Assembly: GCA_050250255.1 (NCBI GenBank)
Contig: JBFWOZ010000001.1
Span: forward strand, 1 to 64,000
Direction of reading: 5' to 3'
From: Bdellovibrionales bacterium
Lineage (GTDB): Bacteria > Bdellovibrionota > Bdellovibrionia > Bdellovibrionales > DASUEL01
Length of the DNA stretch: 64,000 bases
Shown: positions 1 to 12,081 of the stretch, piece after piece
How positions within the stretch are numbered: position 1 is the stretch's first letter
How the letters are laid out: every line of letters starts with the position of its first letter
Notes under the pieces: generated by a model
What the model was told of the DNA's origin: nothing
Database searches by the model: none
Seen by the model: only the letters and a program-made list of their open reading frames with translations
Translations under genes and position numbers: made by a program

Positions 1-2
1 GG

Positions 3-83
3 TTGCCACAACCCGATTTGAGAATTACAGCTATATCAGCTCCAGAATCCTGGCGCATCTACTTACAGTTCGAAGCGGGCTAA
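3..83 (+). CDS. possible 3' end of an upstream CDS cut by the window edge
   Basis: Open frame LPQPDLRITAISAPESWRIYLQFEAG* ending at TAA 81-83; too short to identify. Confidence 0.3.
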   Translation: MPQPDLRITAISAPESWRIYLQFEAG

Positions 84-143
84 CGTGAACCCAACAGCTA
101 ATCGGATCTTGCCAATTTATGAGTTGGGTTCTAGGATTTTGCT

Positions 144-821
144 ATGTTTGTAAAAGTCGCACACAAATCAGAAGCAGATTCTCTCTATCAAGCGGTGATT
201 GATCAGAAGCGTCCTTTACAAATTCAATTATCTAATAAAAAAATTGTAACGGCTAAAGCCATTGAGAGACTGGGACAAGATCTTAAGCTCAACATCGCCT
301 ATATCGAACAGTTTCGTGGAGACCAAGATGTGACGGTGTCTTTTTCTGTCGGAGAAGACATTTTATTTTTAAAGAGTCATATCGTGGATAAAGGAAATCA
401 TTATCTACTCAACATTGCTTCGGGACTTCATAAGCTACAGAGACGCGGAAGTTTTCGTCTGACGGTTCCTGAAAACATGGATGCCAAAATCAAATTTGAT
501 CCCATAAAAGGAACAGAATTCAAAAAGCCTTTTCACCTTTCCAATATTAGTGGGGGCGGCTTGGGAGTAGAGTTACCGCTGGCTCATCGAGATCTTTTTA
601 AGAAAGAAGATCTTGTGGAATTCCAGTTGGAATTGACAGGTGAGTTTAATAAAAAAGTCTCAGGCCGAATCAGACTCGTAGCTGACTCGAAAGAAGATCC
701 CACAAAAAAGTTTCGTTTAGGAATCCAATTCGAAGGACTCAAGAAGAACGACGAAGAAAAGCTCACGCAACTAATCACCAATCTTTATCGTCGTTTCTTT
801 CTTGCTTCGAGATTTTCTTAA
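144..821 (+). CDS. PilZ-domain flagellar brake-like protein (YcgR family)
   Basis: QRRGSFR (RxxxR) and NISGGG (D/NxSxxG) c-di-GMP-binding motifs; adjacent to flagellins. Confidence 0.85.
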   Translation: MFVKVAHKSEADSLYQAVIDQKRPLQIQLSNKKIVTAKAIERLGQDLKLNIAYIEQFRGDQDVTVSFSVGEDILFLKSHIVDKGNHYLLNIASGLHKLQRRGSFRLTVPENMDAKIKFDPIKGTEFKKPFHLSNISGGGLGVELPLAHRDLFKKEDLVEFQLELTGEFNKKVSGRIRLVADSKEDPTKKFRLGIQFEGLKKNDEEKLTQLITNLYRRFFLASRFS

Positions 822-834
822 TTTACCCGTTTGG

Positions 835-941
835 GGTTGGAGGTTTGAGGTTTATCGTTTGAGGTTCGAGGTCTAGGTTTGAGGTTTGAAAACCTTAAAC
901 GGTACCCCAAACCTCAAACGATAAACCTCAAACCTCCAACC
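835..941. repeat. palindromic element built of GAGGTTT-type heptamers (32-bp perfect inverted repeat)
   Basis: 835-866 GGTTGGAGGTTTGAGGTTTATCGTTTGAGGTT is the exact reverse complement of 910-941; related copy at 38237-38384. Confidence 0.9.
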
Positions 942-1032
942 GAAACCGTCTCATAACAAGAAACTCTCGAAGCCCTCCTAAAACCAAAATTAAAAAATTA
1001 ACAATTAATTTCAAATACTTAACGCTTTGTGC

Positions 1033-1059
1033 TAAAGTTATTGCGCTATGCGCCGAAGA
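1033..1059 (+). promoter_or_regulatory. sigma28 (FliA) promoter of flagellin 1
   Basis: TAAA-N15-GCCGAAGA vs consensus TAAA-N15-GCCGATAA; implies TSS near 1066. Confidence 0.8.
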
Positions 1060-1146
1060 GTTCCATGACGGCTGATATGTTTTGAAAATTTAATTGTGGG
1101 CGACGACTGAATCACAGTCTCTTGATGAGACTTGAGGAGGTGTCCA

Positions 1147-1980
1147 ATGCCTTTACGTATTTCAACCAACCTGTCGAGCATTTCTGCTCAACGGCACTTA
1201 TCCAAATCCCAGGAGAGAGCGGAGCATTCCCTCAAAGCACTCGCTTCGGGTTCACGTATTGTGAGCGCGGGCGACGATGCGGCTGGGTTAGCAATCAGTG
1301 AGACGCTTCGTGGGCAACTCTCTGGTTTGCGCCAATCACGCATAAATGCTGAAAACGAAGTTTCTTTGATTCAGGTCGCTGAGGGTGGGCTTAACGAACA
1401 AAACAATATCCTTATTCGTTTACTCGAATTGGGAATTCAAGCGGCGAGCGATACTGTTTCAGACCGAGAAAGAGAATATTTAGATAAAGAATTCTCAAGC
1501 TTGGTGGAAGAATTAGATCGTATTGCGCTGACAACAACCTTCGGGAACAAAGCCCTTCTTCAAGGGACAGGGGAACAATTTGAATTCCAGATTGGACCTG
1601 ATAGTGGACCCGAGAGTGTTGTGAGTTATGTGCTTGATTCTGATTCGCGTGCTGACACTTTAGGTGTTGCGGGTCTTACGGTTGTGGATCAAAGTGATGC
1701 ACGTTCGAGTCTTTCGAGTATTGATGATGCGATCGATAGAATCTCAGAAATTCGTGCGGACTTTGGTGCTTTCCAAAGCCGCTTTCATGCAGCAGCTAGT
1801 AACTTGGATATTCAATATGAGAATATCGCTGCGGCTCGTGCTCGCATCTATGATGTGGACGTAGCCCATGAAACTTCGGAGTTATCTGCTGCGCAGATCA
1901 CTCAAGAGGCAGGCATCGCGGTTCTTGCTCAAGCGAACCAAATGCCGATGAGAGCCAGTCGTCTCATTAATCTGGTATAA
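1147..1980 (+). CDS. fliC: flagellin (fla1, more divergent paralog)
   Basis: MPLRISTN...LASGSRI..AGDDAAGLAISE N-terminus, VLAQANQ C-terminus; SD GAGGAGG at 1134-1140 before ATG 1147. Confidence 0.95.
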   Translation: MPLRISTNLSSISAQRHLSKSQERAEHSLKALASGSRIVSAGDDAAGLAISETLRGQLSGLRQSRINAENEVSLIQVAEGGLNEQNNILIRLLELGIQAASDTVSDREREYLDKEFSSLVEELDRIALTTTFGNKALLQGTGEQFEFQIGPDSGPESVVSYVLDSDSRADTLGVAGLTVVDQSDARSSLSSIDDAIDRISEIRADFGAFQSRFHAAASNLDIQYENIAAARARIYDVDVAHETSELSAAQITQEAGIAVLAQANQMPMRASRLINLV

Positions 1981-1993
1981 GAAACCCATCAAG

Positions 1994-2017
1994 AGGCCCC
2001 CCAAAAGGGGCCTTTTT
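1994..2017 (+). terminator. intrinsic terminator after fla1
   Basis: AGGCCCC-ccaaaa-GGGGCCT followed by T run. Confidence 0.8.
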
Positions 2018-2130
2018 CGTGAGCTCCGTCCCCAAAACCTAGACTTTCATCTAAATATTTTTTATTTGGCGTTTTTGAATAAAAACAAGCACAAGACGCA
2101 TCGCGCCCTAACTCCAACTAGACCTTTGGC

Positions 2131-2157
2131 TAAAGTTTCCTAGACCAAGGCCGAGAA
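2131..2157 (+). promoter_or_regulatory. sigma28 promoter of flagellin 2
   Basis: TAAA-N15-GCCGAGAA; implies TSS near 2164 and a ~200-nt leader. Confidence 0.8.
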
Positions 2158-2163
2158 GTTTCA

Positions 2164-2363
2164 TGAACACGTTGGAGCATCGGGAAGTAGAAACATATCA
2201 GCCGTCACTGAAATGTTTTTTGCTGACTGATCATTAAGTCAAAAAAAGCAATTTCGCTTTTCTCTTAATCTTCCAACAGACATTTTTAACGAGCTATGAA
2301 GGCACTCGCTGTAGGGCGCGGGTTTATGACACCAAGGATTTGGAACGTCAGTTGGAGGCTACT
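2164..2363 (+). promoter_or_regulatory. structured 5' leader of fla2 (antisense segments, anti-SD, CsrA-like site)
   Basis: Hairpin AAACAT-A-TCAG-ccgtca-CTGA-A-ATGTTT at 2191-2218; anti-SD 2270-2281; CCAAGGATTTGG at 2332-2343. Confidence 0.6.
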
Positions 2364-3188
2364 ATGGGCTTAAGAATTAATACGAATATCTCTTCGATCA
2401 ATGCGCAGAGACAGTTAGGAAAGCAACAGGCAAGAGCAGAGCATGCTTTGCAAGCGTTGTCTTCAGGAAGTCGAATCGTACAAGCAGCAGATGATGCCGC
2501 TGGTCTCTCGATTTCAGAAAACATCAAAGGACAAACTCGAGGTTTAAAGGCCGCACGCGGTAACGCCTACAACGCGGTTTCTCTCGTACAAGTTTCTGAG
2601 GGTGGTTTGTCAGAAATCAATAACATCTTAATTCGTTTACGTGAATTGGGTGTACAAGCAGCCAGCGATAACATTGGTGAAGTGGAACGCGGATTCCTCA
2701 ATCAAGAAGCGGTGCAGTTAGTACAAGAAGCGGATCGTATTGCGAAAACAACTCGATTCGGTAACAGAACACTTCTTGATGGTTCTGGAGAGCAATTAGA
2801 GTTCCACGTTGGACCATACGCCGGTGACGAAAACGTGATCAGATATCAAATCACAGCCGATGCAACAGGTGAAAAACTTGGTTACAATGGCATCACTGTT
2901 GATACAAAAGACTCAGCAAGACAGACGCTTGAAGCAGTGGACGAAGCATTAACTCAATTGGGTTCTATGCGCGCTGACTTCGGTGCCGTGCAAAGTCGAT
3001 TGAATACTACAGTGTCGAACTTAGACATTCAGTACGAAAACTTAAGTGCTGCGAACTCTCGTATCCGAGATGCTGATATCGCCTTCGAATCTTCAGAGGC
3101 CGCAGCAGCGACAGTACTACAAAACGCTTCGATCGGAGTTTTGGCTCAAGCGAACTCGATCCCATCGCAAGCTTTAAAATTATTGTAA
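2364..3188 (+). CDS. fliC: flagellin (fla2)
   Basis: MGLRINTN...LSSGSRIVQAADDAAGL; NLSAANSRIRDAD; SD GGAGG before ATG 2364. Confidence 0.97.
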   Translation: MGLRINTNISSINAQRQLGKQQARAEHALQALSSGSRIVQAADDAAGLSISENIKGQTRGLKAARGNAYNAVSLVQVSEGGLSEINNILIRLRELGVQAASDNIGEVERGFLNQEAVQLVQEADRIAKTTRFGNRTLLDGSGEQLEFHVGPYAGDENVIRYQITADATGEKLGYNGITVDTKDSARQTLEAVDEALTQLGSMRADFGAVQSRLNTTVSNLDIQYENLSAANSRIRDADIAFESSEAAAATVLQNASIGVLAQANSIPSQALKLL

Positions 3189-3197
3189 TAAAAGAGG

Positions 3198-3221
3198 CTC
3201 CTGCATCAGTGCGGGAGTTTT
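3198..3221 (+). terminator. weak terminator-like hairpin after fla2
   Basis: CTCCTGCA-tcag-TGCGGGAG followed by only four T. Confidence 0.55.
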
Positions 3222-3255
3222 CAAAAGTTAGATATGAACAAGTTATAAGATAAGG

Positions 3256-3372
3256 TAGCGCAAGAGTGAGCAACTAGGAAACGTCGTCGCCCACAAACCG
3301 ATGCAACTTAGTCACTCGAATGTTACTCTTAAGCCCACCCCGGCAGTGTCAAAGCTCCGGGGTTTTTTATTT
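3256..3372 (+). ncRNA. candidate small RNA or fla2 3' UTR extension carrying anti-fla1 and anti-fla2 segments
   Basis: Stem AAGAGTGA(3262-69)/TTACTCTT(3323-30) encloses GTCGTCGCCCACAA, which is antisense to 1094-1107; ends in a +strand terminator CCCCGG..CCGGGG-TTTTTT (3338-3368); 5' end uncertain. Confidence 0.55.
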
Positions 3373-4688
3373 TATGGAGTCGCGGTCGCGGCTTTTACTG
3401 CAGCACCCGTATTTAAATAACCACCCGTTAAAACTTTTCCTTCGAGTTTCGGTGCTTTGATAGCAGTTGCTAAAATAATATCTTTTACTTGTTTCCAATT
3501 GAGCTGCGGATTGGCGCTGTACATGAGTGCAATTGTGCCAGTGACGTGAGGCGCAGCCATAGAAGTTCCTGCAAGATGCTCGTAATAGTATCTGCGTAAT
3601 TGGGAGTGTGTCGGATTATAGGTGCTGTAAATGTGAATTCCTGGTGCAGCGATATCTACAGTTGTGGCGCCTTTGCTGGAAAACCACGTGAGATTTTGTT
3701 TGTTGGAATCAAGAGCGGCGACGCTGATGATGTTTTCGTTGTTATAAGATGCGGGATAAGACGGTGTTTTATCATTATCGCTGCTACTGTTTCCAGCAGC
3801 GGTGACAACAATTGTACCCTTATTTTTTGCATATTCGATGGCATCATAAAAAGTTTGGCTGTATCCATCGCCACCCCAACTACAATTCACCGCTTTCGCA
3901 CCCATTCTTGCTGCATAGAGAACGGTTTTGATTCCATTGTCGATGGTCCCAGATCCGTCTCTATCAAGAAACTTTGTATCTATCAGTGAAACAAGGCCGC
4001 TGACTCCAGAGATTCCTGAATTGTTATCATCACCCACGGCCCCTACGGTTCCACCTACGTGTGTTCCATGGTAATGAGTATCGATTGGGTTATTGATATT
4101 TCCTTCGAAGTTCCATCCGCGAACGTCATCAATAAAACCATTTTGGTCATCATCAATTTTATTAATCGCTTTATTGTTTCCGTTAGTATCTAAACCCATT
4201 TCACCAGGATTTTTCCAAAAGTTTTTCATGAGATCGCCATGGGTCCACATGCCAGTGTCAGAAATCGCAACGGTAATGTCGCGGCTTCCTCTTGTGATTT
4301 CCCAAGCTTCTTGAACTTTGATGGCATCTAATCCCCACATTCCCGTTGATGGGTAGGGGGGAGGAAGAAATGTAGGATCAAATTCTAACTCACCCGCTCG
4401 CACAACGTAGTTGGGTTCTACGTATTCAATGAGTTGAGATAACTCTGAAGCAAGTGGAGAATTTTTTGTCACCACAAGCGGATTTTTATTGGATACCAAC
4501 ACTTGCAACTCTGGAATTTCGGATTCTACCTCTACCCCTAAGCTATTGATAAAGCTTTTAGTACTCATTGCGGACACAGTATTTTTCAGTTTGATGAGAT
4601 ATCCACGATGCTCGAGAGAAGTTGCGTGAGTATTTATTGTGAAAGTGAGAAAAAGAAAAGAAGCGGCAAGCATTCCTAATCGGTTCAT
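3372..4688 (-). CDS. secreted subtilisin-like S8 serine peptidase
   Basis: VAISDTG, HGTHVGG, AAGN, GTSMAAPHV catalytic motifs; signal peptide after ATG 4688. Confidence 0.95.
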   Translation of the reverse strand: MNRLGMLAASFLFLTFTINTHATSLEHRGYLIKLKNTVSAMSTKSFINSLGVEVESEIPELQVLVSNKNPLVVTKNSPLASELSQLIEYVEPNYVVRAGELEFDPTFLPPPYPSTGMWGLDAIKVQEAWEITRGSRDITVAISDTGMWTHGDLMKNFWKNPGEMGLDTNGNNKAINKIDDDQNGFIDDVRGWNFEGNINNPIDTHYHGTHVGGTVGAVGDDNNSGISGVSGLVSLIDTKFLDRDGSGTIDNGIKTVLYAARMGAKAVNCSWGGDGYSQTFYDAIEYAKNKGTIVVTAAGNSSSDNDKTPSYPASYNNENIISVAALDSNKQNLTWFSSKGATTVDIAAPGIHIYSTYNPTHSQLRRYYYEHLAGTSMAAPHVTGTIALMYSANPQLNWKQVKDIILATAIKAPKLEGKVLTGGYLNTGAAVKAATATP

Positions 4689-4857
4689 GAACCCTCCGTG
4701 GCTCTTGATTTCTTTTAAGTTTATCATTTTCAAGAGTGAGGGTTTGTAATGTTTAAAAAGTGAGCACAAGAATCAGTCTAAGGACTTGGGGTCAGTTTGA
4801 TGCTGAGATGATCGTCTAGTTTAAGCACGACGTACATCGTAAGTTTATAGGTAAATT

Positions 4858-4884
4858 TTAAGTTATCTCTTTTTGAGTCGATAA
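4858..4884 (+). promoter_or_regulatory. sigma28-like promoter of the lipoprotein/beta-barrel pair
   Basis: TTAA-N15-GTCGATAA. Confidence 0.6.
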
Positions 4885-4941
4885 GACTTTATGCAAACCC
4901 TCTCATGCGGAGAGCGTTTTAAAGCCAAGGAGCGGCTTATT

Positions 4942-5910
4942 ATGAGTTTCAGTTGGAAGAAATTATTATCCAGCATAATTGCATTGCTGTTATGTGCTTG
5001 TGGTGGGACTCCGTCCGGAGCTCTTTATTATGGAGCGCTTGGTTTTGGTAAACCCAAAATTATTATTTCCAATGCTGACGCCACAGCTCCGGTTCAACAC
5101 ACAATCACAATGTATGATGAAAACGGGACTCTTCTTAAGGTGCTTGCGGACTACACAGATCTAGCAGATCGGCCCCGTGGTTTAACCCTGTGGGGTTCCT
5201 TTAGTTTTCTCGTTCCTATCGAGGGAACAGACCGCATTGATATTGTCGATATTTTTGGGGTGAGAAACACTTGGGCTACGAATGCGCAGTTTACGGGTAA
5301 TATTTTTAAGTCCGTGAATGACTCTAGTGGTAATGTGTATGTTATTGAGACTAATACAATTGAAAGATTTCTGGCGAGTGGAGAAAGAGCTCAGCAGTCG
5401 AGTGCGACTCCTTATATCGCAGCCACACTTGGTACCTGTGTTTTGAGCACACCACGTGGTATGGCGATTGCTCCAACGACCGGTTATTTGGTCGTTTCAA
5501 ATACTGGTAATGATCGAGTGAATATTTATAATGTGAATGCAACTCCCGCAACTTGCGTGAGTTTTAACTCGGCCTCGTACACAACTGCAGATCCATTGCC
5601 AATTCTCACGCATACGAATGGTTCTATGTACATAGGAACTCAAACCGCTGACCTAATTCGAAAAGTCAGTGCAGATGGTGTAACCGTCTCGACGGCTTGG
5701 AGTACAAGTTTGACGGTTATGGGTGATCCCACAGCGATTGCAGAGCTTCCCGATACAAATATTCTTGTAGCTTCAGATCTCACGGATTCAGTAGAAAGAT
5801 TTAGCCTTGATTCGACAGGAAACACTCTTACTCGCGTAGGTAGTGGACCTTTTATTAAGAATGCTTTCACAACTGCAGTTACTGAAATTTTGGTAATACC
5901 AGGAAAATAA
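4942..5910 (+). CDS. putative lipoprotein, beta-propeller (NHL-like) repeats
   Basis: Lipobox LLCAC; repeated PRGL/PRGM/PTAI blade-like motifs; SD AAGGAG. Confidence 0.6.
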   Translation: MSFSWKKLLSSIIALLLCACGGTPSGALYYGALGFGKPKIIISNADATAPVQHTITMYDENGTLLKVLADYTDLADRPRGLTLWGSFSFLVPIEGTDRIDIVDIFGVRNTWATNAQFTGNIFKSVNDSSGNVYVIETNTIERFLASGERAQQSSATPYIAATLGTCVLSTPRGMAIAPTTGYLVVSNTGNDRVNIYNVNATPATCVSFNSASYTTADPLPILTHTNGSMYIGTQTADLIRKVSADGVTVSTAWSTSLTVMGDPTAIAELPDTNILVASDLTDSVERFSLDSTGNTLTRVGSGPFIKNAFTTAVTEILVIPGK

Positions 5911-6576
5911 ATGAAGATTTCTTTTGGGCTTTTAACATTCGTAATTATCTTTGGACTTTTCAGTTCACAGATAGCTTTGGCTCAAAAATCGTCAAAAAAA
6001 GGCAATCGAGATGATCGTGGTTTATCAGCACAAGTAGATTTGGGTTTACCAACGGTGACGATTGAAAATCCAGATTCTTCAATTGCGTACTATACGGGTA
6101 TTGGTGTCACTGGAAGAGGTATTTTACCGTTATTGGATACTAGGTACTTCTCATTCAATCTTGTAGGTAATGCAAAATACTTAGATCTTAAGAACACAGC
6201 GAGTACGGCTTCGCAAAAAGAGATCGCTAACCACATTGGTGCTGGCGGCGGTGTGAGTGTCATGCTCTGGATTTTCTTTTACGGTATCGATTACAACTAT
6301 ATGTTAGCAAGACATTACACGGTAGGTACCTTTTCTCAGGAACTTAATTACAATTATACCTCAGCAGTTACTTATTACGGAGCACAAATAGAATTTGGTC
6401 AGCTTTCACTGGGAGGTGGCGTGAGTATGAACACAGCCACAATTTCGAATGGGGCCACGGACCTCAATATGGACTCACCTTATTCAGAAAAAACGTATTT
6501 CGTTTTTGCTCGCTATTCAACGGGACTGACAGTTCCCCGAATGTTCAAAGCCCTCTTCTCAGACGGCAAAAAATAA
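5911..6576 (+). CDS. putative outer-membrane beta-barrel protein
   Basis: Signal peptide; alternating amphipathic, Gly/Tyr-rich strands; starts immediately after the upstream stop. Confidence 0.55.
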   Translation: MKISFGLLTFVIIFGLFSSQIALAQKSSKKGNRDDRGLSAQVDLGLPTVTIENPDSSIAYYTGIGVTGRGILPLLDTRYFSFNLVGNAKYLDLKNTASTASQKEIANHIGAGGGVSVMLWIFFYGIDYNYMLARHYTVGTFSQELNYNYTSAVTYYGAQIEFGQLSLGGGVSMNTATISNGATDLNMDSPYSEKTYFVFARYSTGLTVPRMFKALFSDGKK

Positions 6577-6758
6577 TTACCACAACAAAGCTTCTGCGTT
6601 CTCGACTCGACTTTGAGTTGTGCAGACCAAGCGCCACCTCGACATTCATCTCATCAAATTCAACGATCTAAGTCTGGTTTTCCCAAACCTACGTCTAGCT
6701 TTTCCTCTGCTAAAGTCTAGTTTCCCCTCAACAAAAGTCCAGATTCACTGGATCAGAC

Positions 6759-6785
6759 TTTAGTCACTCTCGACCTCGCCGAAAG
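6759..6785 (+). promoter_or_regulatory. sigma28-like promoter of flagellin 3
   Basis: TTTA-N15-GCCGAAAG; weaker -35; implies TSS near 6792. Confidence 0.55.
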
Positions 6786-6985
6786 GTTTGGTGTGAGTGC
6801 TGAGAAAACAGCAGCTGAGTGAGAGACGATCTTGACGGAGAAGCTCTCAACAAAAACTCAAATGCTGATTCAAAGTCTCCAACGTGTTTAACAAAAACTT
6901 AGCGCAGGATGCGTAGTCAAATTCGTTCTCGGAGGGGTCTGAGAGCAATGACGGAGAAAGTATTCTCTCAAATGAGGAGGATAAA

Positions 6986-7819
6986 ATGGGTTTCAGAATT
7001 ACGACGAATGTATCGTCAATCAATGCGCAGAGACACTTCGGCGCGAGTCAGAGAGAGATCACAAAAAACTTCGCACAGTTATCATCTGGTAGCCGTATTA
7101 CAAAGGCGGCAGACGATGCAGCAGGATTAGGGATTAGCGAAGGATTACGAGCTCAAATTCGTGGATACGGTCAAGCAAAGCGAAATGCTGCAGATGCCGT
7201 TTCCTTACTTCAAGTTTCTGAAGGCGGTATGGGCGAAGTGAGCAATATCCTCACTCGATTGCGTGAACTCGGTGTTCAAGCCGCTTCTGATACAGTGGGT
7301 GATCGTGAAAGAAATTTCATTGATAAAGAAGTACAGCAACTCAAAGCAGAATTACAACGTATTGCGGAATCGACCCGTTTCGGATCAACAAAACTTCTTG
7401 ATGGATCTGGTGGAGTTTTCGATTTCCAAGTGGATATTAACAATAACGAATTTCAAGATAGAATTTCTTTTAATGCCGGCGCACAAAATGTGACTACGAG
7501 CCAGTTGGGCATTGAAGGCTTAGACTATAATTCCAAAGAGGGCGCTCAAACAGCTCTTGAGACAATCGATGCGGCTCAAGTTCAAGTGAACTCGTACAGA
7601 GCAAACCTTGGTGCGATTCAAAATCGATTGTTCTCCACGCAAGAATATTTGGGAATTGCAGAAGAGAATTTGTCAGCTGCAAACTCTCGAATTCGAGATA
7701 CTGATATCGCTCAGTCAACGGCCGAGCTCACTCGCAATAACATTCTCATGCAAGCAACAACAGGTGTGTTGTCTCAAGCGAATGCGATGCCGAGCATGGC
7801 GCTTAAGTTGATTGGTTAA
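6986..7819 (+). CDS. fliC: flagellin (fla3)
   Basis: MGFRITTN...LSSGSRITKAADDAAGL; RANLGAIQNRL; SD GAGGAGG. Confidence 0.97.
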   Translation: MGFRITTNVSSINAQRHFGASQREITKNFAQLSSGSRITKAADDAAGLGISEGLRAQIRGYGQAKRNAADAVSLLQVSEGGMGEVSNILTRLRELGVQAASDTVGDRERNFIDKEVQQLKAELQRIAESTRFGSTKLLDGSGGVFDFQVDINNNEFQDRISFNAGAQNVTTSQLGIEGLDYNSKEGAQTALETIDAAQVQVNSYRANLGAIQNRLFSTQEYLGIAEENLSAANSRIRDTDIAQSTAELTRNNILMQATTGVLSQANAMPSMALKLIG

Positions 7820-7848
7820 TTTAAAAATAAGTCAAAAAAGCGTTTATA

Positions 7849-7910
7849 TAGACCAGGTACTTATCCTCCCTGGTCTAACCCAGCCCGGAGACATTGTTTC
7901 CGGGATTTTA
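7849..7910 (+). terminator. anti-SD-loop hairpin followed by terminator hairpin after fla3
   Basis: TAGACCAGG-tacttatcctc-CCTGGTCTA (7849-7877), then CCCGGAGAC-att-GTTTCCGGG-atttt. Confidence 0.65.
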
Positions 7911-7985
7911 TAGGGTTCGACTTTGGTAGAGGTTTTGCTCAAAGTATTCAGGATTTAGAGTGTTTGGCCGAAGAGATAAGCGAGT

Positions 7986-8351
7986 ATGAATATCAAATCG
8001 GTGGCTCACAACATTCTACCGCTCGAGATTACAAAGATTCGACGGAGTCAGAGCGAAAAGGCTGGGGATAGAGACCCAAACGCTCAGTCTGACGGCGGTG
8101 GCGGAGACGCAACTAAACGTCATTTATCCGAGGAAGAGATTCAAAAAGCCATTGCTCATCTCAAAGAGCTTAAGGGCGTTAAAGATAATAATTTACAAAT
8201 TCGACTCCACAAAAAAGACGGCATCACGATCGTGTTTGTTGAAGATCATTTGGGAAAAGTGATTCGACGGATTCCCGAAGCCGAGCTCTATCATCTGACC
8301 ACTCAGGATAAGAATACTGAGAAGGGTCATTTACTCAACAAAAGTTTGTAA
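7986..8351 (+). CDS. flaG: FlaG-like flagellar protein
   Basis: GKVIRRIP motif; lies between flagellin and fliD; TCAG-N15-GCCGAAGA promoter at 7948-7974. Confidence 0.75.
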   Translation: MNIKSVAHNILPLEITKIRRSQSEKAGDRDPNAQSDGGGGDATKRHLSEEEIQKAIAHLKELKGVKDNNLQIRLHKKDGITIVFVEDHLGKVIRRIPEAELYHLTTQDKNTEKGHLLNKSL

Positions 8352-8364
8352 TCAAAACAATACC

Positions 8365-8452
8365 TACAGGTTTCTAGGATGCGGGAATCCAGGAATACGG
8401 TATTCTGGAATAACTACTGAATCCCTGTGTTCCGATATCCAGAAAACCTGTA
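8365..8452. repeat. imperfect palindrome with ~8-nt GGAATCCA-like periodicity (copy 1)
   Basis: TACAGGTTTCTAGGAT...ATCCAGAAAACCTGTA; similar to 10045-10143. Confidence 0.7.
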
Positions 8453-8522
8453 TTCATATAAGACATTCCTTTTCGTTTTTCTCGAAAATAAAGTTACTTT
8501 GAGTCAAACATCCATGCCTGTG

Positions 8523-8610
8523 ACTTTTCAAAATTGGCGCATGCTGCCGTATCCCCTACGTTGGGGGACCCTCGGCAGTGCCAACCCCTTCGGGGCGAGT
8601 TTTGAAAAGT
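8523..8610. other. 88-nt multibranched GC-rich palindromic element just 3' of the HNH gene
   Basis: ACTTTTCAAAA/TTTTGAAAAGT ends; nested TTGGC/GCCAA, CTGCCG/CGGCAG, TCCCC/GGGGA; side hairpin CCCC-ttc-GGGG. Confidence 0.7.
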
Positions 8611-8611
8611 T

Positions 8612-9115
8612 CTAATGACTATGCGTTAATCGGTGATGGCCCGCACAAAGGGTGGCAAGATTCTCAAAAGTGTCTTGCCCTCCCTTGCTTTTCGGGATCA
8701 CGTGATGGGTGTGTAGCCATTTTCTTTCTGTGCAACGTACACCTTGTGGATTTTTATATGTGCACTGACCCTGATCACGCCGTTGAACCTGTCTTAAGAC
8801 AGGTTGGTGGGCTCTATGCATCAATTTTACAGCTTTCTGTACAGGATCTTTCTTCTCTAAATAGACATCCAGCAAGGCCTCAAAAGTTTCCTCAAAGTTT
8901 ACATTTTTTTGTTGGCGCTGGGATTCTAGTTCTTGAGCACGTTTGAGTTTTAGGCTCACGACTTCAGAAAATCTAAAATTTCTTTTACATCGAAGATGTA
9001 AGTACACGCGATGCTCATCGACTTGTTGAAGAATATCGATTAGATCACTCTCGGACTTGCGAAATCGTCCAGCTACTTCGAGAGCTTTTTCGTGAATTTG
9101 CATATGTTTTGTCAT
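8612..9115 (-). CDS. HNH endonuclease, probably internally deleted
   Basis: RDQGQC..C..LHTHHVIPKSKGG..ENLATLCAGHH HNH motif. Confidence 0.8.
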   Translation of the reverse strand: MTKHMQIHEKALEVAGRFRKSESDLIDILQQVDEHRVYLHLRCKRNFRFSEVVSLKLKRAQELESQRQQKNVNFEETFEALLDVYLEKKDPVQKAVKLMHRAHQPVLRQVQRRDQGQCTYKNPQGVRCTERKWLHTHHVIPKSKGGQDTFENLATLCAGHHRLTHSH

Positions 9116-9435
9116 AGGTTTCTCCTGTCAGGAAAGAGTTGGCGTGACTATAACATAGGTTTTTGAAATGCTAGTTTGTTGAAAATTAAATTGAGAAAAT
9201 GACTTTTTAAAAACGTGTTTAAACCTAAGTATTTCGCTTGAGGTCACTGTATTTCAAGGACGAATGAAAACAAAAGATTTTTATCAAACAACAAATCACA
9301 GGAAGTTTAAACGCCCCGAAATCTCGTCAAAATATATTTTCATATTTACTCAGTCAGTCGTAACATTTTGAACCAACTGTTGATCGAAAACCATTCTTAA
9401 TGGACAAATTATCTTCCTCAACGTAAAAAGTTTTG

Positions 9436-10002
9436 ATGAGAAAAAATTTAAATGAATTGCCACCCAATCTCCCGTGTCCGGTTGATGACGGTAAAGCGAA
9501 CCATCTGAAGAATTTAGAAATTCCTAAAATTAAACTTCAATCTACTGAGGGAGAAAAAGTAGACCTTTCGCTAATATTTCAAGAGCCTAGCGTGTTATTC
9601 ATTTACCCTCGGGCTGGTAGCCCATTAGAGTCCAACTCGAATCCTGATCTTTGGGATGCAATTCCTGGAGCTAGAGGGTGTACTCCTCAATCATGCGGAT
9701 TTCGAGATTTGTTTCAAGAATTCAAATCTTTGGATGTAAACATTTTTGGGCTTAGTATGCAGTCTCCGCTCGTCCAAAAGGAATTTGTTGAGCGAAATCA
9801 TATTCCCTTTCCAATTCTTAGCGATTCTAGATATGAACTAACGGATAAAATGGAGTTGCCAACTTTTGAATTTGAAGGGGAGCGTCTTATTAAACGAATG
9901 GCTCTGTTCATTGAGAATGGAAAAGTACATAAGGTGTTTTATCCTGTTTTCCCCCCAGATAAAAACGCGGAAGAAGTTTTGTCCTGGCTGAGGGAGCGGT
10001 AG
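9436..10002 (+). CDS. peroxiredoxin (BCP/AhpC-TSA family)
   Basis: PGARGCTPQSCGFRD CxxxxC motif; VFYPVFPPD. Confidence 0.9.
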   Translation: MRKNLNELPPNLPCPVDDGKANHLKNLEIPKIKLQSTEGEKVDLSLIFQEPSVLFIYPRAGSPLESNSNPDLWDAIPGARGCTPQSCGFRDLFQEFKSLDVNIFGLSMQSPLVQKEFVERNHIPFPILSDSRYELTDKMELPTFEFEGERLIKRMALFIENGKVHKVFYPVFPPDKNAEEVLSWLRER

Positions 10003-10044
10003 CTCGCTTATACAGACAAACATCTTGCAGCTCAGACAAGACCA

Positions 10045-10143
10045 TACCGGTTTTCTAGGATACCGGAATCCAAGAACACGGTTATCCGGTAGTTATTCGG
10101 GATAACATGTATCCCTAGATTCCTGTATCCCCGAAACCCAGTA
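10045..10143. repeat. imperfect palindrome with ~8-nt periodicity (copy 2)
   Basis: GGTTTTCTAGGATACCGGAATCCAAGAACACGGT resembles 8369-8401 GGTTTCTAGGATGCGGGAATCCAGGAATACGGT. Confidence 0.7.
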
Positions 10144-10279
10144 GTGTGAGGGTTTGTCTTCAGACCTTCGCCCATAATCACCAGACTTTTTTGCCTATCT
10201 GCTTAGGTCCATTGCCATATTATTGGCTCACGGTGTCTCGTTTTCTTTTGGGAGAATAAAAGGGAATAGGAGGCTCTCT

Positions 10280-11680
10280 TTGGCAATTTCATTTGGAGGA
10301 ATCAATACAGGATTACCACCAAACCTCGTGGAACAATTGGTCCAAGTGGAGCGTCAACCTATCAAAACGATCGAAGCTAAAAAAGCGAAAACCGAAAACA
10401 AACTCAAGCTTGTGACTGATCTCGATACAAAACTTCGTGGCATGTTAGGAACTATTCGTGATCTCGCGGGCTCTGGAGGTTTCAACGACATCAAACTTCT
10501 TTCTGGAGATGCCAGTGTTGTTGATGGGGCGGTCGATCCAAAAGAATCCATTAAAGGAAGCTGGAGTGTAGAAGTTATTGAGCTAGCACAAAAAGCTGCG
10601 GCGATTTCTAACGGTTTTCCAGACAAAGATAAAACAGAACTTGGTGTTGGTTATTTCAAGTTTGATACTCTTGAAGGTACCAAAGAAGTTTATCTAAGTG
10701 GTGGAAACAGCACTTTAGAAGCCGCCGCGAAAGCCATCAATGCGGCTGAAGTAGGCATGCAAGCCTCTGTGATCAAAGACTCTCGATATCCTGATGCTCC
10801 TTATCGCCTCGTGGTTGCGGGAGCCTCAGTGGGTGGCGAAAATCAAGTGAGTTATCCACAGCTTTACTTTCTAGATGGAGATCAGGATTTTTTCTTCGAG
10901 GAAGAAAAATCAGCTAAGAACGGAAAAGTAAAAGTTGATGGTATCGAGTTTGAAGTCACGGACAATCAAATCAAAGACATTATCCCCGGAGTCACTCTCG
11001 ATATTAAACAGGCAGCTCCAGGCCGACCGATCAACGTTAGCGTTAAAGAGGATCGTGAAGTCGTTAGCGGTAAAATTAAATCCTTTGTGGATACGGCAAA
11101 CGAAGTTCTGAGCTTTATTCAAGGTCAAAACAAACTTAGCGAGAAGAGCGATACCTCATCTACCTTAGGAGGCGATAGTCTTCTGCGCTCTGTAGAACAA
11201 AGATTAAGAAGCCTTATTCAAGATAGACAGTATGGAACTGGTGGGGTGATCACTTCTCTGAATCAGCTAGGAATTACTTTTAACAGAGGCGGTACTTTAG
11301 ATTTTGATCAGGAAAAATTCACATCCGCACTTTCAAAAGATCCAAATGACGTCAGAAATTTCCTTGTGGGCGACGGCGGAACCGTAGGATTTATTCCTCG
11401 GCTAAGAAACACAATTAACGTTCTGACGGACGGTGCTTTTGGAGCGGTCACGCAGAGAAAACGCGGGCTCGAAAATAACATTAAACAGGCCGATGATCGA
11501 ATTGAAACAATGGAGCGTCAGATCGGTCGAAGAGAGCAGGCGTTAAAGCGGCAGTTTGCAAATTTAGAGCAAACAATGTCCCGTTTAAAGTCACAAGGCT
11601 CTTATCTACAATCAAGAATGGGTGGCGGTGGAATGGGTGATATGAACTTTGGTGGTATGTCAGGTGCAGGTGGACAATGA
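10280..11680 (+). CDS. fliD: flagellar filament cap protein
   Basis: ISFGGINTGL N-terminus, LNQLGITF..GTLDFD, LKRQFANLEQTMSRLKSQ; TTG start after GGAGG. Confidence 0.95.
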   Translation: MAISFGGINTGLPPNLVEQLVQVERQPIKTIEAKKAKTENKLKLVTDLDTKLRGMLGTIRDLAGSGGFNDIKLLSGDASVVDGAVDPKESIKGSWSVEVIELAQKAAAISNGFPDKDKTELGVGYFKFDTLEGTKEVYLSGGNSTLEAAAKAINAAEVGMQASVIKDSRYPDAPYRLVVAGASVGGENQVSYPQLYFLDGDQDFFFEEEKSAKNGKVKVDGIEFEVTDNQIKDIIPGVTLDIKQAAPGRPINVSVKEDREVVSGKIKSFVDTANEVLSFIQGQNKLSEKSDTSSTLGGDSLLRSVEQRLRSLIQDRQYGTGGVITSLNQLGITFNRGGTLDFDQEKFTSALSKDPNDVRNFLVGDGGTVGFIPRLRNTINVLTDGAFGAVTQRKRGLENNIKQADDRIETMERQIGRREQALKRQFANLEQTMSRLKSQGSYLQSRMGGGGMGDMNFGGMSGAGGQ

Positions 11681-12081
11681 GTCAAAAATTAGCATATCAG
11701 AAATATAAAAAAACGGCGGTCGAGAGTGCGAGCAGAGAAAAAATTCTTCTCATGCTCTATGAAGGTGCAATTCGATTTACAAAATTGGGCATTAAGGCCT
11801 GCGAAGAAAAAAAGATCGCAGATCGAGGTTTCAATATTGGAAAAGCATTCGATATTGTTATGGAGCTGAACAACACCCTTGATCACAAGGTGGGTGGAGC
11901 GCTGGCAACAAATCTTGAGCAGCTCTACATGTTTATTACTGACAAATACACAGCGGCCAACATTAAGGGGGATCCAGAGCCTTTGCGACAAGCGCTCAAG
12001 ATCTTGGAGACTCTCTATGACGGCTGGGTAAAGGCTGTTGAGCAATTAAAGAAAAACGAATTACAAAACGAACAGAAGTAA
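11677..12081 (+). CDS. fliS: flagellin export chaperone
   Basis: ASREKILLMLYEGAI, ELNNTLD, NLEQLYMF. Confidence 0.95.
   Translation: MSQKLAYQKYKKTAVESASREKILLMLYEGAIRFTKLGIKACEEKKIADRGFNIGKAFDIVMELNNTLDHKVGGALATNLEQLYMFITDKYTAANIKGDPEPLRQALKILETLYDGWVKAVEQLKKNELQNEQK

Follow-up and report, generated by a model that had tools for sequence, protein, structure and literature searches.

The flagellin cluster and its RNA elements

The window, i.e. the whole stretch of 64,000 nt of Bdellovibrionales DNA that was analysed, carries three flagellin genes (fla1, fla2 and fla3) in the same orientation, together with a conserved RNA element that lies directly behind fla2 and ends in a terminator. The features discussed below are the following:

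1033..1059 (+): fla1 promoter, sigma28 (FliA)-type (consensus match; predicted +1 at 1067)
1066..1082 (+): 5' end of the fla1 mRNA, donor of helix C (exact complement of 2191-2207; co-varies in relatives)
1094..1107 (+): site A of the fla1 leader, predicted 5' arm of a stem over the ribosome-binding region (exact complement of 3283-3296)
1147..1980 (+): fla1 flagellin, 277 aa (Pfam PF00669/PF00700)
1994..2017 (+): terminator-like hairpin with U tract 3' of fla1 (read from the sequence; absent from the list of a simple scan)
2131..2157 (+): fla2 promoter, sigma28-type (consensus match; predicted +1 at 2165)
2165..2277 (+): structured 5' domain of the fla2 leader, the hub (fold z = -3.9; 0/200 shuffles as good)
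2165-2177 (+): fla2 5' end, donor of helix D, within the hub
2177..2183 (+): helix B arm in the fla2 leader, incidental (6/7 bases predicted paired in cis; not conserved)
2202-2207 (+): fla2 hairpin loop, entry site of helix C, within the hub
2270-2277 (+): fla2 closing/anti-Shine-Dalgarno element, within the hub
2364..3188 (+): fla2 flagellin, 274 aa (Pfam; tree)
3268..3372 (+): conserved two-hairpin RNA element (3' element), donor of helix A (alignment and model)
stem 3282-3286/3299-3303, loop 3287-3298 (+): seed hairpin of the 3' element (alignment and model)
3338-3362 (+): terminator hairpin of the 3' element, then a U tract (alignment and model)
6759..6785 (+): fla3 promoter, sigma28-type (consensus match; predicted +1 at 6793)
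6833..6838 (+): putative loop hexamer of the fla3 leader, complementary to the fla2 loop 2202-2207 (reduced form of contact E, found by inspection)
6877..6890 (+): site D of the fla3 leader, mimicking fla2's own closing element (complementarity; co-variation)
6986..7819 (+): fla3 flagellin, 277 aa (Pfam; best-hit labelling), with flaG, fliD and fliS downstream

In the tree, the fla1 protein forms the sister clade to fla2 and the fla2 protein clusters with FliC1 (Bd0604)-type proteins, while fla3 occupies the gene position of FliC2 (Bd0606), its placement in this small tree being weakly supported. With the fla1 query used here no fla1 was found in genus g26 (G034, G036 and G048). Minus-strand gene rows (G034 fC6, G036 f, G096 c and d, and five G013 rows) were left out of the flagellin comparison, and L177, which has no flagellin in the locus, and L186 were excluded from the locus set.

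In 47 of 50 leaders, a conserved GAC at the fla1 5' end corresponds to the 8th base past the -10 octamer. Judged by eye, the +1 has the same offset from the -10 in 10 of the 13 rows that come first among those marked FliA-positive in Table S2 of PMC3627812, where the Bd0606 promoter, orthologous to that of fla3, is also mapped. The public RNA runs consist of contigs only, from which levels, strand and RNA-RNA chimeras cannot be read; at locus L167, contigs of two of the eight runs (two studies) start exactly at the equivalent of the fla2 +1, which is a weak hint.

The 3' element is present in 97 of the 151 genomes of the order, with nine weak model matches (24-29 bits) outside it. Neither the element nor the leaders matched an Rfam family: positions 1-12000 gave weak microRNA-model matches below the gathering score, none of them there. 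A 59-nt contig covering the seed was seen in run X9 and was not counted as evidence. Homologues of both structured regions have been published as attack-phase RNAs, plus strand, of Bdellovibrio bacteriovorus (PMC3627812). The L167 homologue of the fla2 5' domain is APsRNA3, whose published start lies 4 nt downstream of the predicted +1 and would shorten helix D there. The homologue of the 3' element overlaps APsRNA4, which covers the seed hairpin by the coordinates of Table 2, the sequence in Fig S1 being displaced by 30 nt from them. In the parts of that source drawn on here, neither RNA is given a target or function, and conservation beyond the species is not mentioned.

Complementarity between leaders and 3' element

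The preliminary description of this DNA had proposed that three antisense helices, in cyclic order, join the non-coding regions of the cluster in a three-way junction. All three are exact Watson-Crick reverse complements, with the linkers of 1, 7 and 11 nt that it gave. Helix A joins 3283-3296 in the 3' element to 1094-1107 in the fla1 leader (14 bp), helix B joins 3298-3304 (CCGATGC) in the element to 2177-2183 (GCATCGG) in the fla2 leader (7 bp), and helix C joins 2191-2207 in the fla2 leader to 1066-1082 at the fla1 5' end (17 bp, or 16 bp from the predicted start at 1067). The sequences of A (14 nt) and C (17 nt) are each confined to their two sites in the 3.09 Mb genome, in which the 7-mer of helix B occurs 312 times. 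A contact of the fla3 leader at 2164-2177, said to abut helix B, is real in the form of helix D (2166-2177 with 6877-6888, 12 bp exact, or 14 bp as read from the sequence with one G-U allowed); it does not abut B, as base 2177 is common to both. Helices A, C and D are above chance and B is at chance level. The canonical 7-nt pair of contact E, between the fla2 and fla3 leader loops, is absent from this genome.

Co-variation across Bdellovibrionales

Helices A, C and also D co-vary across 40-52 Bdellovibrionales loci, and B fails to do so. Helices between partners from the same genome were longer than those between partners from different genomes, at 10.2 against 7.7 bp for A (n=40), 12.5 against 7.8 bp for C (n=52) and 11.6 against 8.5 bp for D (n=43), with shuffled sequences giving 5.3-5.9 bp. 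When partners were swapped between nearest relatives, the own partner was better in 14/16, 23/24 and 17/21 non-tied pairs for A, C and D, respectively, compared with 13/20 and 10/14 in the controls. As many as four Watson-Crick pair types occur in a single alignment column of the helices, and where 3' elements with altered seeds were found by the model alone, the fla1 sites were altered to match (9.4 vs 6.0 bp, n=11). The loops of contact E are perfect complements in 43 of the 47 loci with both motifs, nine of these pairs lying in five non-consensus variants. Internal helix positions hold 38 G-U against 8 A-C oppositions, an excess that points to pairing of plus-strand RNA; helix A alone is without strand bias (G-U 5, A-C 6). 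The permutation test was significant for one of the control pairs too (fla2 5' end and fla1 leader, 6.1 against 5.5 bp), which indicates that kinship inflates the permutation p values, and pairing is inflated at the columns of the conserved cores on which the motifs were anchored. In G001, the closest relative, the search for the fla2 leader was negative, and the compensatory change in helix C was replicated there on the fla1/fla3 side only.

The contacts are also kept where the genes are far from each other or on opposite strands, which argues that they act in trans. With fla1 inverted, L103 retains 20 bp of C and 12 bp of A, and with fla3 inverted, L040 and L046 retain 9 and 10 bp of D. The number of fla2 loop motifs is one in four of the five genomes without a detected fla1, and at least two in 47 of the 52 loci with fla1. 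Complementary stretches that have evolved together in dozens of genomes suggest that these RNAs pair, and we regard the pairings as very probably real. The earlier idea that flagellin RNAs sense each other by strand displacement finds support in part, for A, C and D, as trans pairing by loop- or toehold-initiated invasion.

Other partners were less convincing. The fla3 5' end has a partner neither in the fla1 nor in the fla2 leaders, and in the genome studied (G000) its match to the f6 leader is limited to 8 bp. The seed of the 3' element has no match in the fla3 leader, and fla2's own leader was rejected as its general target (7.1 vs 6.9 bp; swap 12/23), being plausible only in single lineages. 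Genus g26 retains the seed without fla1; the sole candidate site there, in the fla2 leader, is imperfect, pairs about as well across genomes as within one (-18.3 and -19.0 kcal/mol) and has no effect on the ribosome-binding site (RBS).

Predicted effects on ribosome access

Signs of regulation were computed by equilibrium folding. The preliminary description had fla1 clamped by the paired element, and here the prediction is the reverse: in 32 of 49 leaders site A, mostly 20-80 nt upstream of the fla1 start, is itself predicted to pair with the ribosome-binding region of fla1, so that binding there is predicted to open fla1. Blocking A lowered the opening cost of the fla1 RBS by a median of 2.7 kcal/mol, with a drop of at least 1 kcal/mol in 25 of 34 leaders and the opposite in two; random blocks in fla1 leaders average -1.5 kcal/mol, so part of this effect is generic. 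In this genome site A has 9.1 expected pairs to the RBS region, and the change in fla1 opening due to A is no more than -0.5 kcal/mol, against -1.3 for the control.

In fla2 leaders (n=47), the bases at which helix C would enter belong to a loop, with a P(unpaired) of 0.78; for the six bases that follow it is 0.25. C and D are predicted to close fla2 weakly, raising its RBS opening cost by medians of 0.7 and 0.8 kcal/mol; in this genome C changes it by -0.2 kcal/mol, and blocking the fla2 5' end raises pairing of the anti-Shine-Dalgarno element to the RBS from 3.1 to 7.8 bp. The closing helix is formed at equilibrium in just 9 of 53 leaders, and the anti-Shine-Dalgarno element pairs with the RBS in 28 of 53, up to only 31 of 53 with the fla2 5' end blocked. 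No effect of D on the fla3 RBS is predicted (median 0.0, n=39).

The reading that we favour, with moderate confidence, is that the flagellin leaders and the 3' element pair two at a time, in a trans relay centred on fla2, with helix B incidental. The 3' element would be released from fla2, or transcribed behind it, and its loop seed would invade the stem hiding the fla1 RBS and turn fla1 translation on. The first bases of the fla1 mRNA would invade the hairpin of the fla2 leader through its loop and open it, and the fla3 leader would catch fla2 through a kissing contact between loops (E) and via the fla2 5' end (D). Both the fla1 and the fla3 contacts would free the fla2 anti-Shine-Dalgarno element, turning fla2 down and passing expression to fla1 and fla3. 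Since A and C can occupy the fla1 leader together, three RNAs could form one complex with no need of helix B. That regulation has these proposed signs is, on the folding predictions, an even call.

The same pairings may instead act on RNA stability or assembly and not on ribosome access, with duplexes of 12-20 bp provoking or preventing nuclease cuts, or loop-loop contacts bringing flagellin mRNAs together. This would fit the absence of an RBS change in fla3 upon pairing of D, the median effects below 1 kcal/mol of C and D on fla2 and the distance of the pairing sites from the start codons. An RNase E/G gene is present, the fla2 5' domain is followed by an A/U-rich tract (mean 70%) in which, by PMC3627812, APsRNA3 ends, and a precedent for stability exists in hly-prsA2 (PMC8722363). 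Against it, site A and the fla2 closing element pair with RBS regions of their own leaders in the 32/49 and 28/53 cases given above, and we consider this alternative unlikely.

Origin of the 3' element

A further possibility is that the element stays on the full-length fla2 mRNA, which would then hold the fla1 leader with both of its ends, through A and C and without helix B; as in the AND gate of the preliminary description, only complete fla2 transcripts would act. A and C formed together in 31 of 32 three-strand folds; no sigma28 promoter was found before the element in any of 57 loci, nor any promoter in front of it in a sigma70 scan, and RNA contigs at L167 extend from fla2 over the element, a contig being no proof of a single transcript. 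However, a terminator-like structure (lenient definition) lies between the fla2 stop codon and the element in 30 of 57 loci, with a gap of 12-485 nt, and the motif RNWUU, which we take to be RNase E-like, precedes the element stem in 36 of 57 loci against 11.8 expected. PMC3627812, moreover, treats APsRNA4 as an RNA in its own right and gives a start for it. A double grip by the intact messenger is, on balance, improbable, and a pairwise relay remains the preferred reading.

Helix B and the three-way junction

The junction originally proposed, clamping fla1 through A, B and C, has the cyclic geometry claimed for it and does fold in silico here: with ViennaRNA the three helices form together in junction-compatible strand order, with P about 0.98 each. 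It is not conserved, however, and its folding in this genome is incidental. Helix B is practically as long with partners from other genomes (4.6 bp) as with those from its own (4.7 bp, n=54), and it gained 0.1 bp in the swap test (13/19); it reached at least 7 bp in 4 of 32 three-strand folds, its mean of 2.6 bp equalling the 2.7 bp with a shuffled arm, and 17 of 100 partial shuffles of this genome's sequence attained 7 bp. With the element and fla2 strands alone its probability is 0.0, and both arms are predicted to lie inside hairpins of their own RNAs. The length, swap and folding tests rule out B as a conserved arm, and a functional junction is very improbable. Chance, or relics at the DNA level such as inverted duplications and protein sites, would account for B, and core-anchored motifs do inflate pairing at conserved columns. 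For the matches as a whole, an origin of this kind without RNA pairing is hardly credible: compensatory changes separate nearest relatives, altered seeds were matched out of sample, G-U is favoured, and pairing begins at the predicted first transcribed base.

Flagellin order and comparison with known systems

The filament of B. bacteriovorus is built in ordered blocks, FliC3, FliC5, FliC1, FliC2 and FliC6 (PMC2791853). With flagellin promoters that all look sigma28-type here and mRNAs present together, this order is left unexplained in what we draw on of that source. In this species the FliC1- and FliC2-type leaders share contacts D and E, and the fla2-fla3 link of the relay matches the published proximal-to-distal order of FliC1 then FliC2. 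It could be, though we put this forward as a tentative and rather doubtful extension, that a chaperone-free relay of paralogous flagellin mRNAs sets the order of synthesis under one sigma factor, and hence the filament blocks. If true, the relay would give APsRNA3 and APsRNA4 a function and be a rare case of mRNAs directly regulating paralogous mRNAs; the co-varying contacts would offer single-base handles on RNA-level ordering in this cultured and harmless predator.

Our literature search found no paper on the leader pairs or on pairing of the 3' element, and a search within the preprint bioRxiv 10.64898/2026.06.08.730854 gave no match. The known systems resemble the relay in part. FlaX of Vibrio cholerae, shown to alter filament composition, is likewise an RNA from behind a flagellin gene, and it pairs with the 5' UTR of a paralogous flagellin mRNA (PMC11879080). 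As described there, flaB is repressed through three sites, the RBS among them, and FlaX depends on ProQ, whereas here there is one loop seed with an upstream site and predicted activation, and neither ProQ nor Hfq was found in G000 (99% complete). No homology was seen between FlaX and the 3' element, and leader-to-leader pairs, as seen here, were not found for FlaX in the portions of that paper used. The sigma28-dependent FliX and MotR of E. coli are RNAs from flagellar-gene UTRs that tune flagellar expression, but they pair within coding sequences in an Hfq-containing, single-flagellin organism (PMC10578931), and CJnc230 of C. jejuni, also derived from a flagellar UTR, targets flgM and not flagellin paralogs (PMC11187230). 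Direct trans pairing of two mRNAs is known for the hly 3' UTR and the prsA2 5' UTR of Listeria monocytogenes, the model for a full-length fla2 mRNA acting on fla1; it involves a single pair of unrelated genes and protection from RNase J1 (PMC8722363), as opposed to several paralogs, 5' ends and loops here. The predicted entry of helix C resembles IS10 RNA-IN/RNA-OUT, in which an unstructured mRNA 5' tail meets a hairpin loop; RNA-OUT is cis-encoded and fully complementary (PMC4737173), whereas the partners described here are leaders of separate paralogous genes on the same strand, which must co-evolve.

Organization of the flagellin cluster

The flagellin cluster at the start of the window is that of a Bdellovibrionales-type genome, and includes the following features:

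1147-1980, fla1 flagellin gene
2364-3188, fla2 flagellin gene, in the same cluster as fla1
3268-3372, + strand, 3' element, a two-hairpin RNA behind fla2
6986-7819, fla3 flagellin gene, followed by flaG, fliD and fliS

Six flagellins are present in this genome. In a small tree, fla2 clusters with FliC1-type proteins and the further flagellins f4, f5 and f6 with the FliC3, FliC4 and FliC5 types, while fla3 occupies the FliC2 gene position. Both CsrA and FliW are encoded (csrA adjoins fliW on contig C4), and neither Hfq nor ProQ was found in this genome. Hairpins with GGA loops at 2331-2343 (fla2 leader) and 6902-6914 (fla3 leader) resemble CsrA sites. Each of the three genes is preceded by a match to the sigma28-type promoter consensus, in agreement with the one given in PMC3627812.

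A long palindrome of 7-nt units (828-948, after a PilZ-domain gene; fold z = -12.5) has related copies at about eight further places in the genome and is likely a dispersed REP/MITE-like element, unconnected with the flagellin contacts. Other, mutually related imperfect palindromes (8352-8480 and 10040-10150) flank an HNH gene (8612-9115, minus strand) and a redoxin-like ORF, which sit as an insertion between flaG and fliD.

Pairwise contacts between flagellin RNAs

Comparison of sequences among relatives indicates that a set of pairwise flagellin RNA contacts is real and conserved. The three helices reported in the preliminary description were confirmed as exact in the sequence, and a fourth was identified:

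3283-3296 with 1094-1107, helix A, 3' element with fla1 leader
3298-3304 with 2177-2183, helix B, 3' element with fla2 leader
1066-1082 with 2191-2207, helix C, fla1 5' end with fla2 leader
helix D, fla2 5' end with fla3 leader

The sequences of A and C have no further occurrence in the genome. The locus set comprised 107 loci around fla2 orthologues plus the window, with 9 duplicates and 4 near-duplicates removed; twenty regions were added later, of which 18 were used. A fixed promoter-score cut was passed by 55 fla1, 83 fla2 and 49 fla3 leaders, and a seed-containing 3' element was recognized by pattern in 60 of the 95 loci having fla2. Since this pattern required the seed, elements found solely by a covariance model were tested too.

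The longest exact helix was longer with the same-genome partner than with partners from other genomes for A (10.2 versus 7.7 bp, n=40), C (12.5 versus 7.8 bp, n=52) and D (11.6 versus 8.5 bp, n=43). Because one control was also significant in this comparison, with a small effect (6.1 versus 5.5 bp), we relied upon exchanges of partners between nearest relatives. Among non-tied pairs, the own partner was better in 14/16 (A), 23/24 (C) and 17/21 (D), and in 13/20 and 10/14 for controls. Columns beside the helix cores show as many as four Watson-Crick pair types, and the C core of this genome carries a compensatory change relative to the common form. When elements found solely by the model accompanied a fla1 leader (n=11), altered seeds were matched by altered sites (9.4 versus 6.0 bp). 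Internal non-Watson-Crick positions were G-U in 38 cases and A-C in 8, an excess expected for plus-strand RNA; for A by itself the numbers were 5 and 6. Of 50 leaders, 47 have the first paired base of C in the 8th position past the -10 box, which is the usual mapped FliA start offset (10 of the first 13 FliA-positive rows of Table S2 in PMC3627812). The pairs are kept where the genes lie on opposite strands (L103, L040, L046), and therefore act in trans.

A loop-loop contact, E, would join hairpin loops of the fla2 and fla3 leaders. Of 59 loci examined, 47 carry both motifs; in 43 of these the two loops are perfectly complementary over 7 nt, and five changed versions account for nine of the 43. 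The canonical pair is absent in this genome, where six bases of the fla3 loop are complementary to the only fla2 loop, 2202-2207. With fla1 present, 47 of 52 fla2 leaders had two or more loop motifs, and in the five genomes where fla1 was not found 4/5 had one.

The 3' element

The element consists of a stem carrying the loop seed and then a terminator hairpin. In its hand-set structure 80.8% of cells pair, versus 72.2% in shuffles (0/500 as high), and both-sided changes occur in 12 of 16 pairs (126/500 shuffles as high). The covariance model matched 97 of the 151 genomes of the order, 94 of them once; beyond the order it gave exclusively weak matches, in 9 of 83 genomes, and no Rfam family matched the element. 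The element may be processed from fla2 mRNA or be made from a promoter of its own. At L167, a locus of a relative, the coordinates published for the attack-phase RNA APsRNA4 (PMC3627812) span the seed hairpin, with their start 30 nt past the stop codon; the 5' domain of the fla2-type leader there corresponds to APsRNA3. In that source the APsRNA4 sequence of Fig S1 lies 30 nt upstream of the Table 2 coordinates.

In L033, L047, L090, L097, L098, L102, L109, L113, L118 and L123 the seed core is repeated in the terminator loop, so that binding at two sites could be possible. Behind fla3, 7838-7915 matches the element model weakly (18 bits), as do sequences behind fla3 in L034, L036 and L046; it may be a paralogous element or merely a terminator. 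In g26, a genus where fla1 was not found (L167-L176, L179), a conserved bulged seed match lies in the fla2 leader about 60 nt before the start, with neither a same-genome excess nor an effect on the ribosome-binding site.

Helix B and the three-way junction

The preliminary description had combined A, B and C in a three-way junction. With strands in junction order, the fold predicted for this genome contains all three helices (P about 0.98), but across 32 loci B stays at the level of shuffles. In three-strand folds, A and C both reached at least 8 bp together in 31/32 loci and B reached 7 bp in 4/32, with a mean of 2.6 bp versus 2.7 bp with shuffled arms. Its 7-mer occurs 312 times in the genome, same-genome and cross-genome lengths were 4.7 and 4.6 bp (n=54), and the own partner was better in 13/19 swaps, with a gain of 0.1 bp. 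A conserved A/B/C junction is not supported. When the arm was shuffled with its first three bases kept, a 7-bp B arose in 17 of 100 cases for this genome, and B was absent from the predicted fold of the element with fla2 only. Both arms are predicted to lie within stems of their own RNAs, becoming free only once A and C form. Given the few 7-bp cases, the shuffle-level mean and these stems, B is best read as two freed strands pairing by chance. The fla1 leader could still bridge a complex of three RNAs.

Predicted effects on ribosome sites

For 32 of 49 leaders, folding predicts that the A site is base-paired to the ribosome-binding region of fla1, and blocking the site lowered the predicted opening cost of fla1 by a median of 2.7 kcal/mol (at least 1 in 25/34; just 0.5 in this genome). 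For these two reasons A would likely activate fla1, the reverse of the clamping proposed earlier. The predicted fla2 opening cost rose by 0.7 kcal/mol with C (at least 1 in 23/50, opposite in 5; -0.2 in this genome) and by 0.8 with D (at least 1 in 17/39, opposite in 4; +3.2 in this genome), and no effect of D on the fla3 ribosome site was predicted. In this genome 2270-2277 is predicted to pair partly with the 5' end of fla2 and partly with its Shine-Dalgarno region, moving to the latter once the 5' end is taken; in most relatives the fla2 element is predicted to be on the Shine-Dalgarno region at equilibrium already.

The preferred reading is that the contacts form a flagellin RNA relay with fla2 at its centre, in which the signs of regulation, drawn from predicted folds, have about an even chance of being correct. 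The main rival is that the contacts act through stability or assembly. A filament order of the FliC flagellins has been published (PMC2791853); fla2 belongs to the FliC1 group and fla3 to the FliC2 position, and thus the D/E link would join neighbours in that order.

Comparison with known systems

Our literature search, which covered papers outside subscription, found none on pairing between flagellin leaders, and within that scope the set of pairwise contacts is undescribed. The 3' element would work like FlaX, but differs from it in the chaperone and ribosome-binding-site features of FlaX; C would work like the IS10 pairing, but is not cis-encoded; and the nearest mRNA-mRNA case is hly-prsA2.
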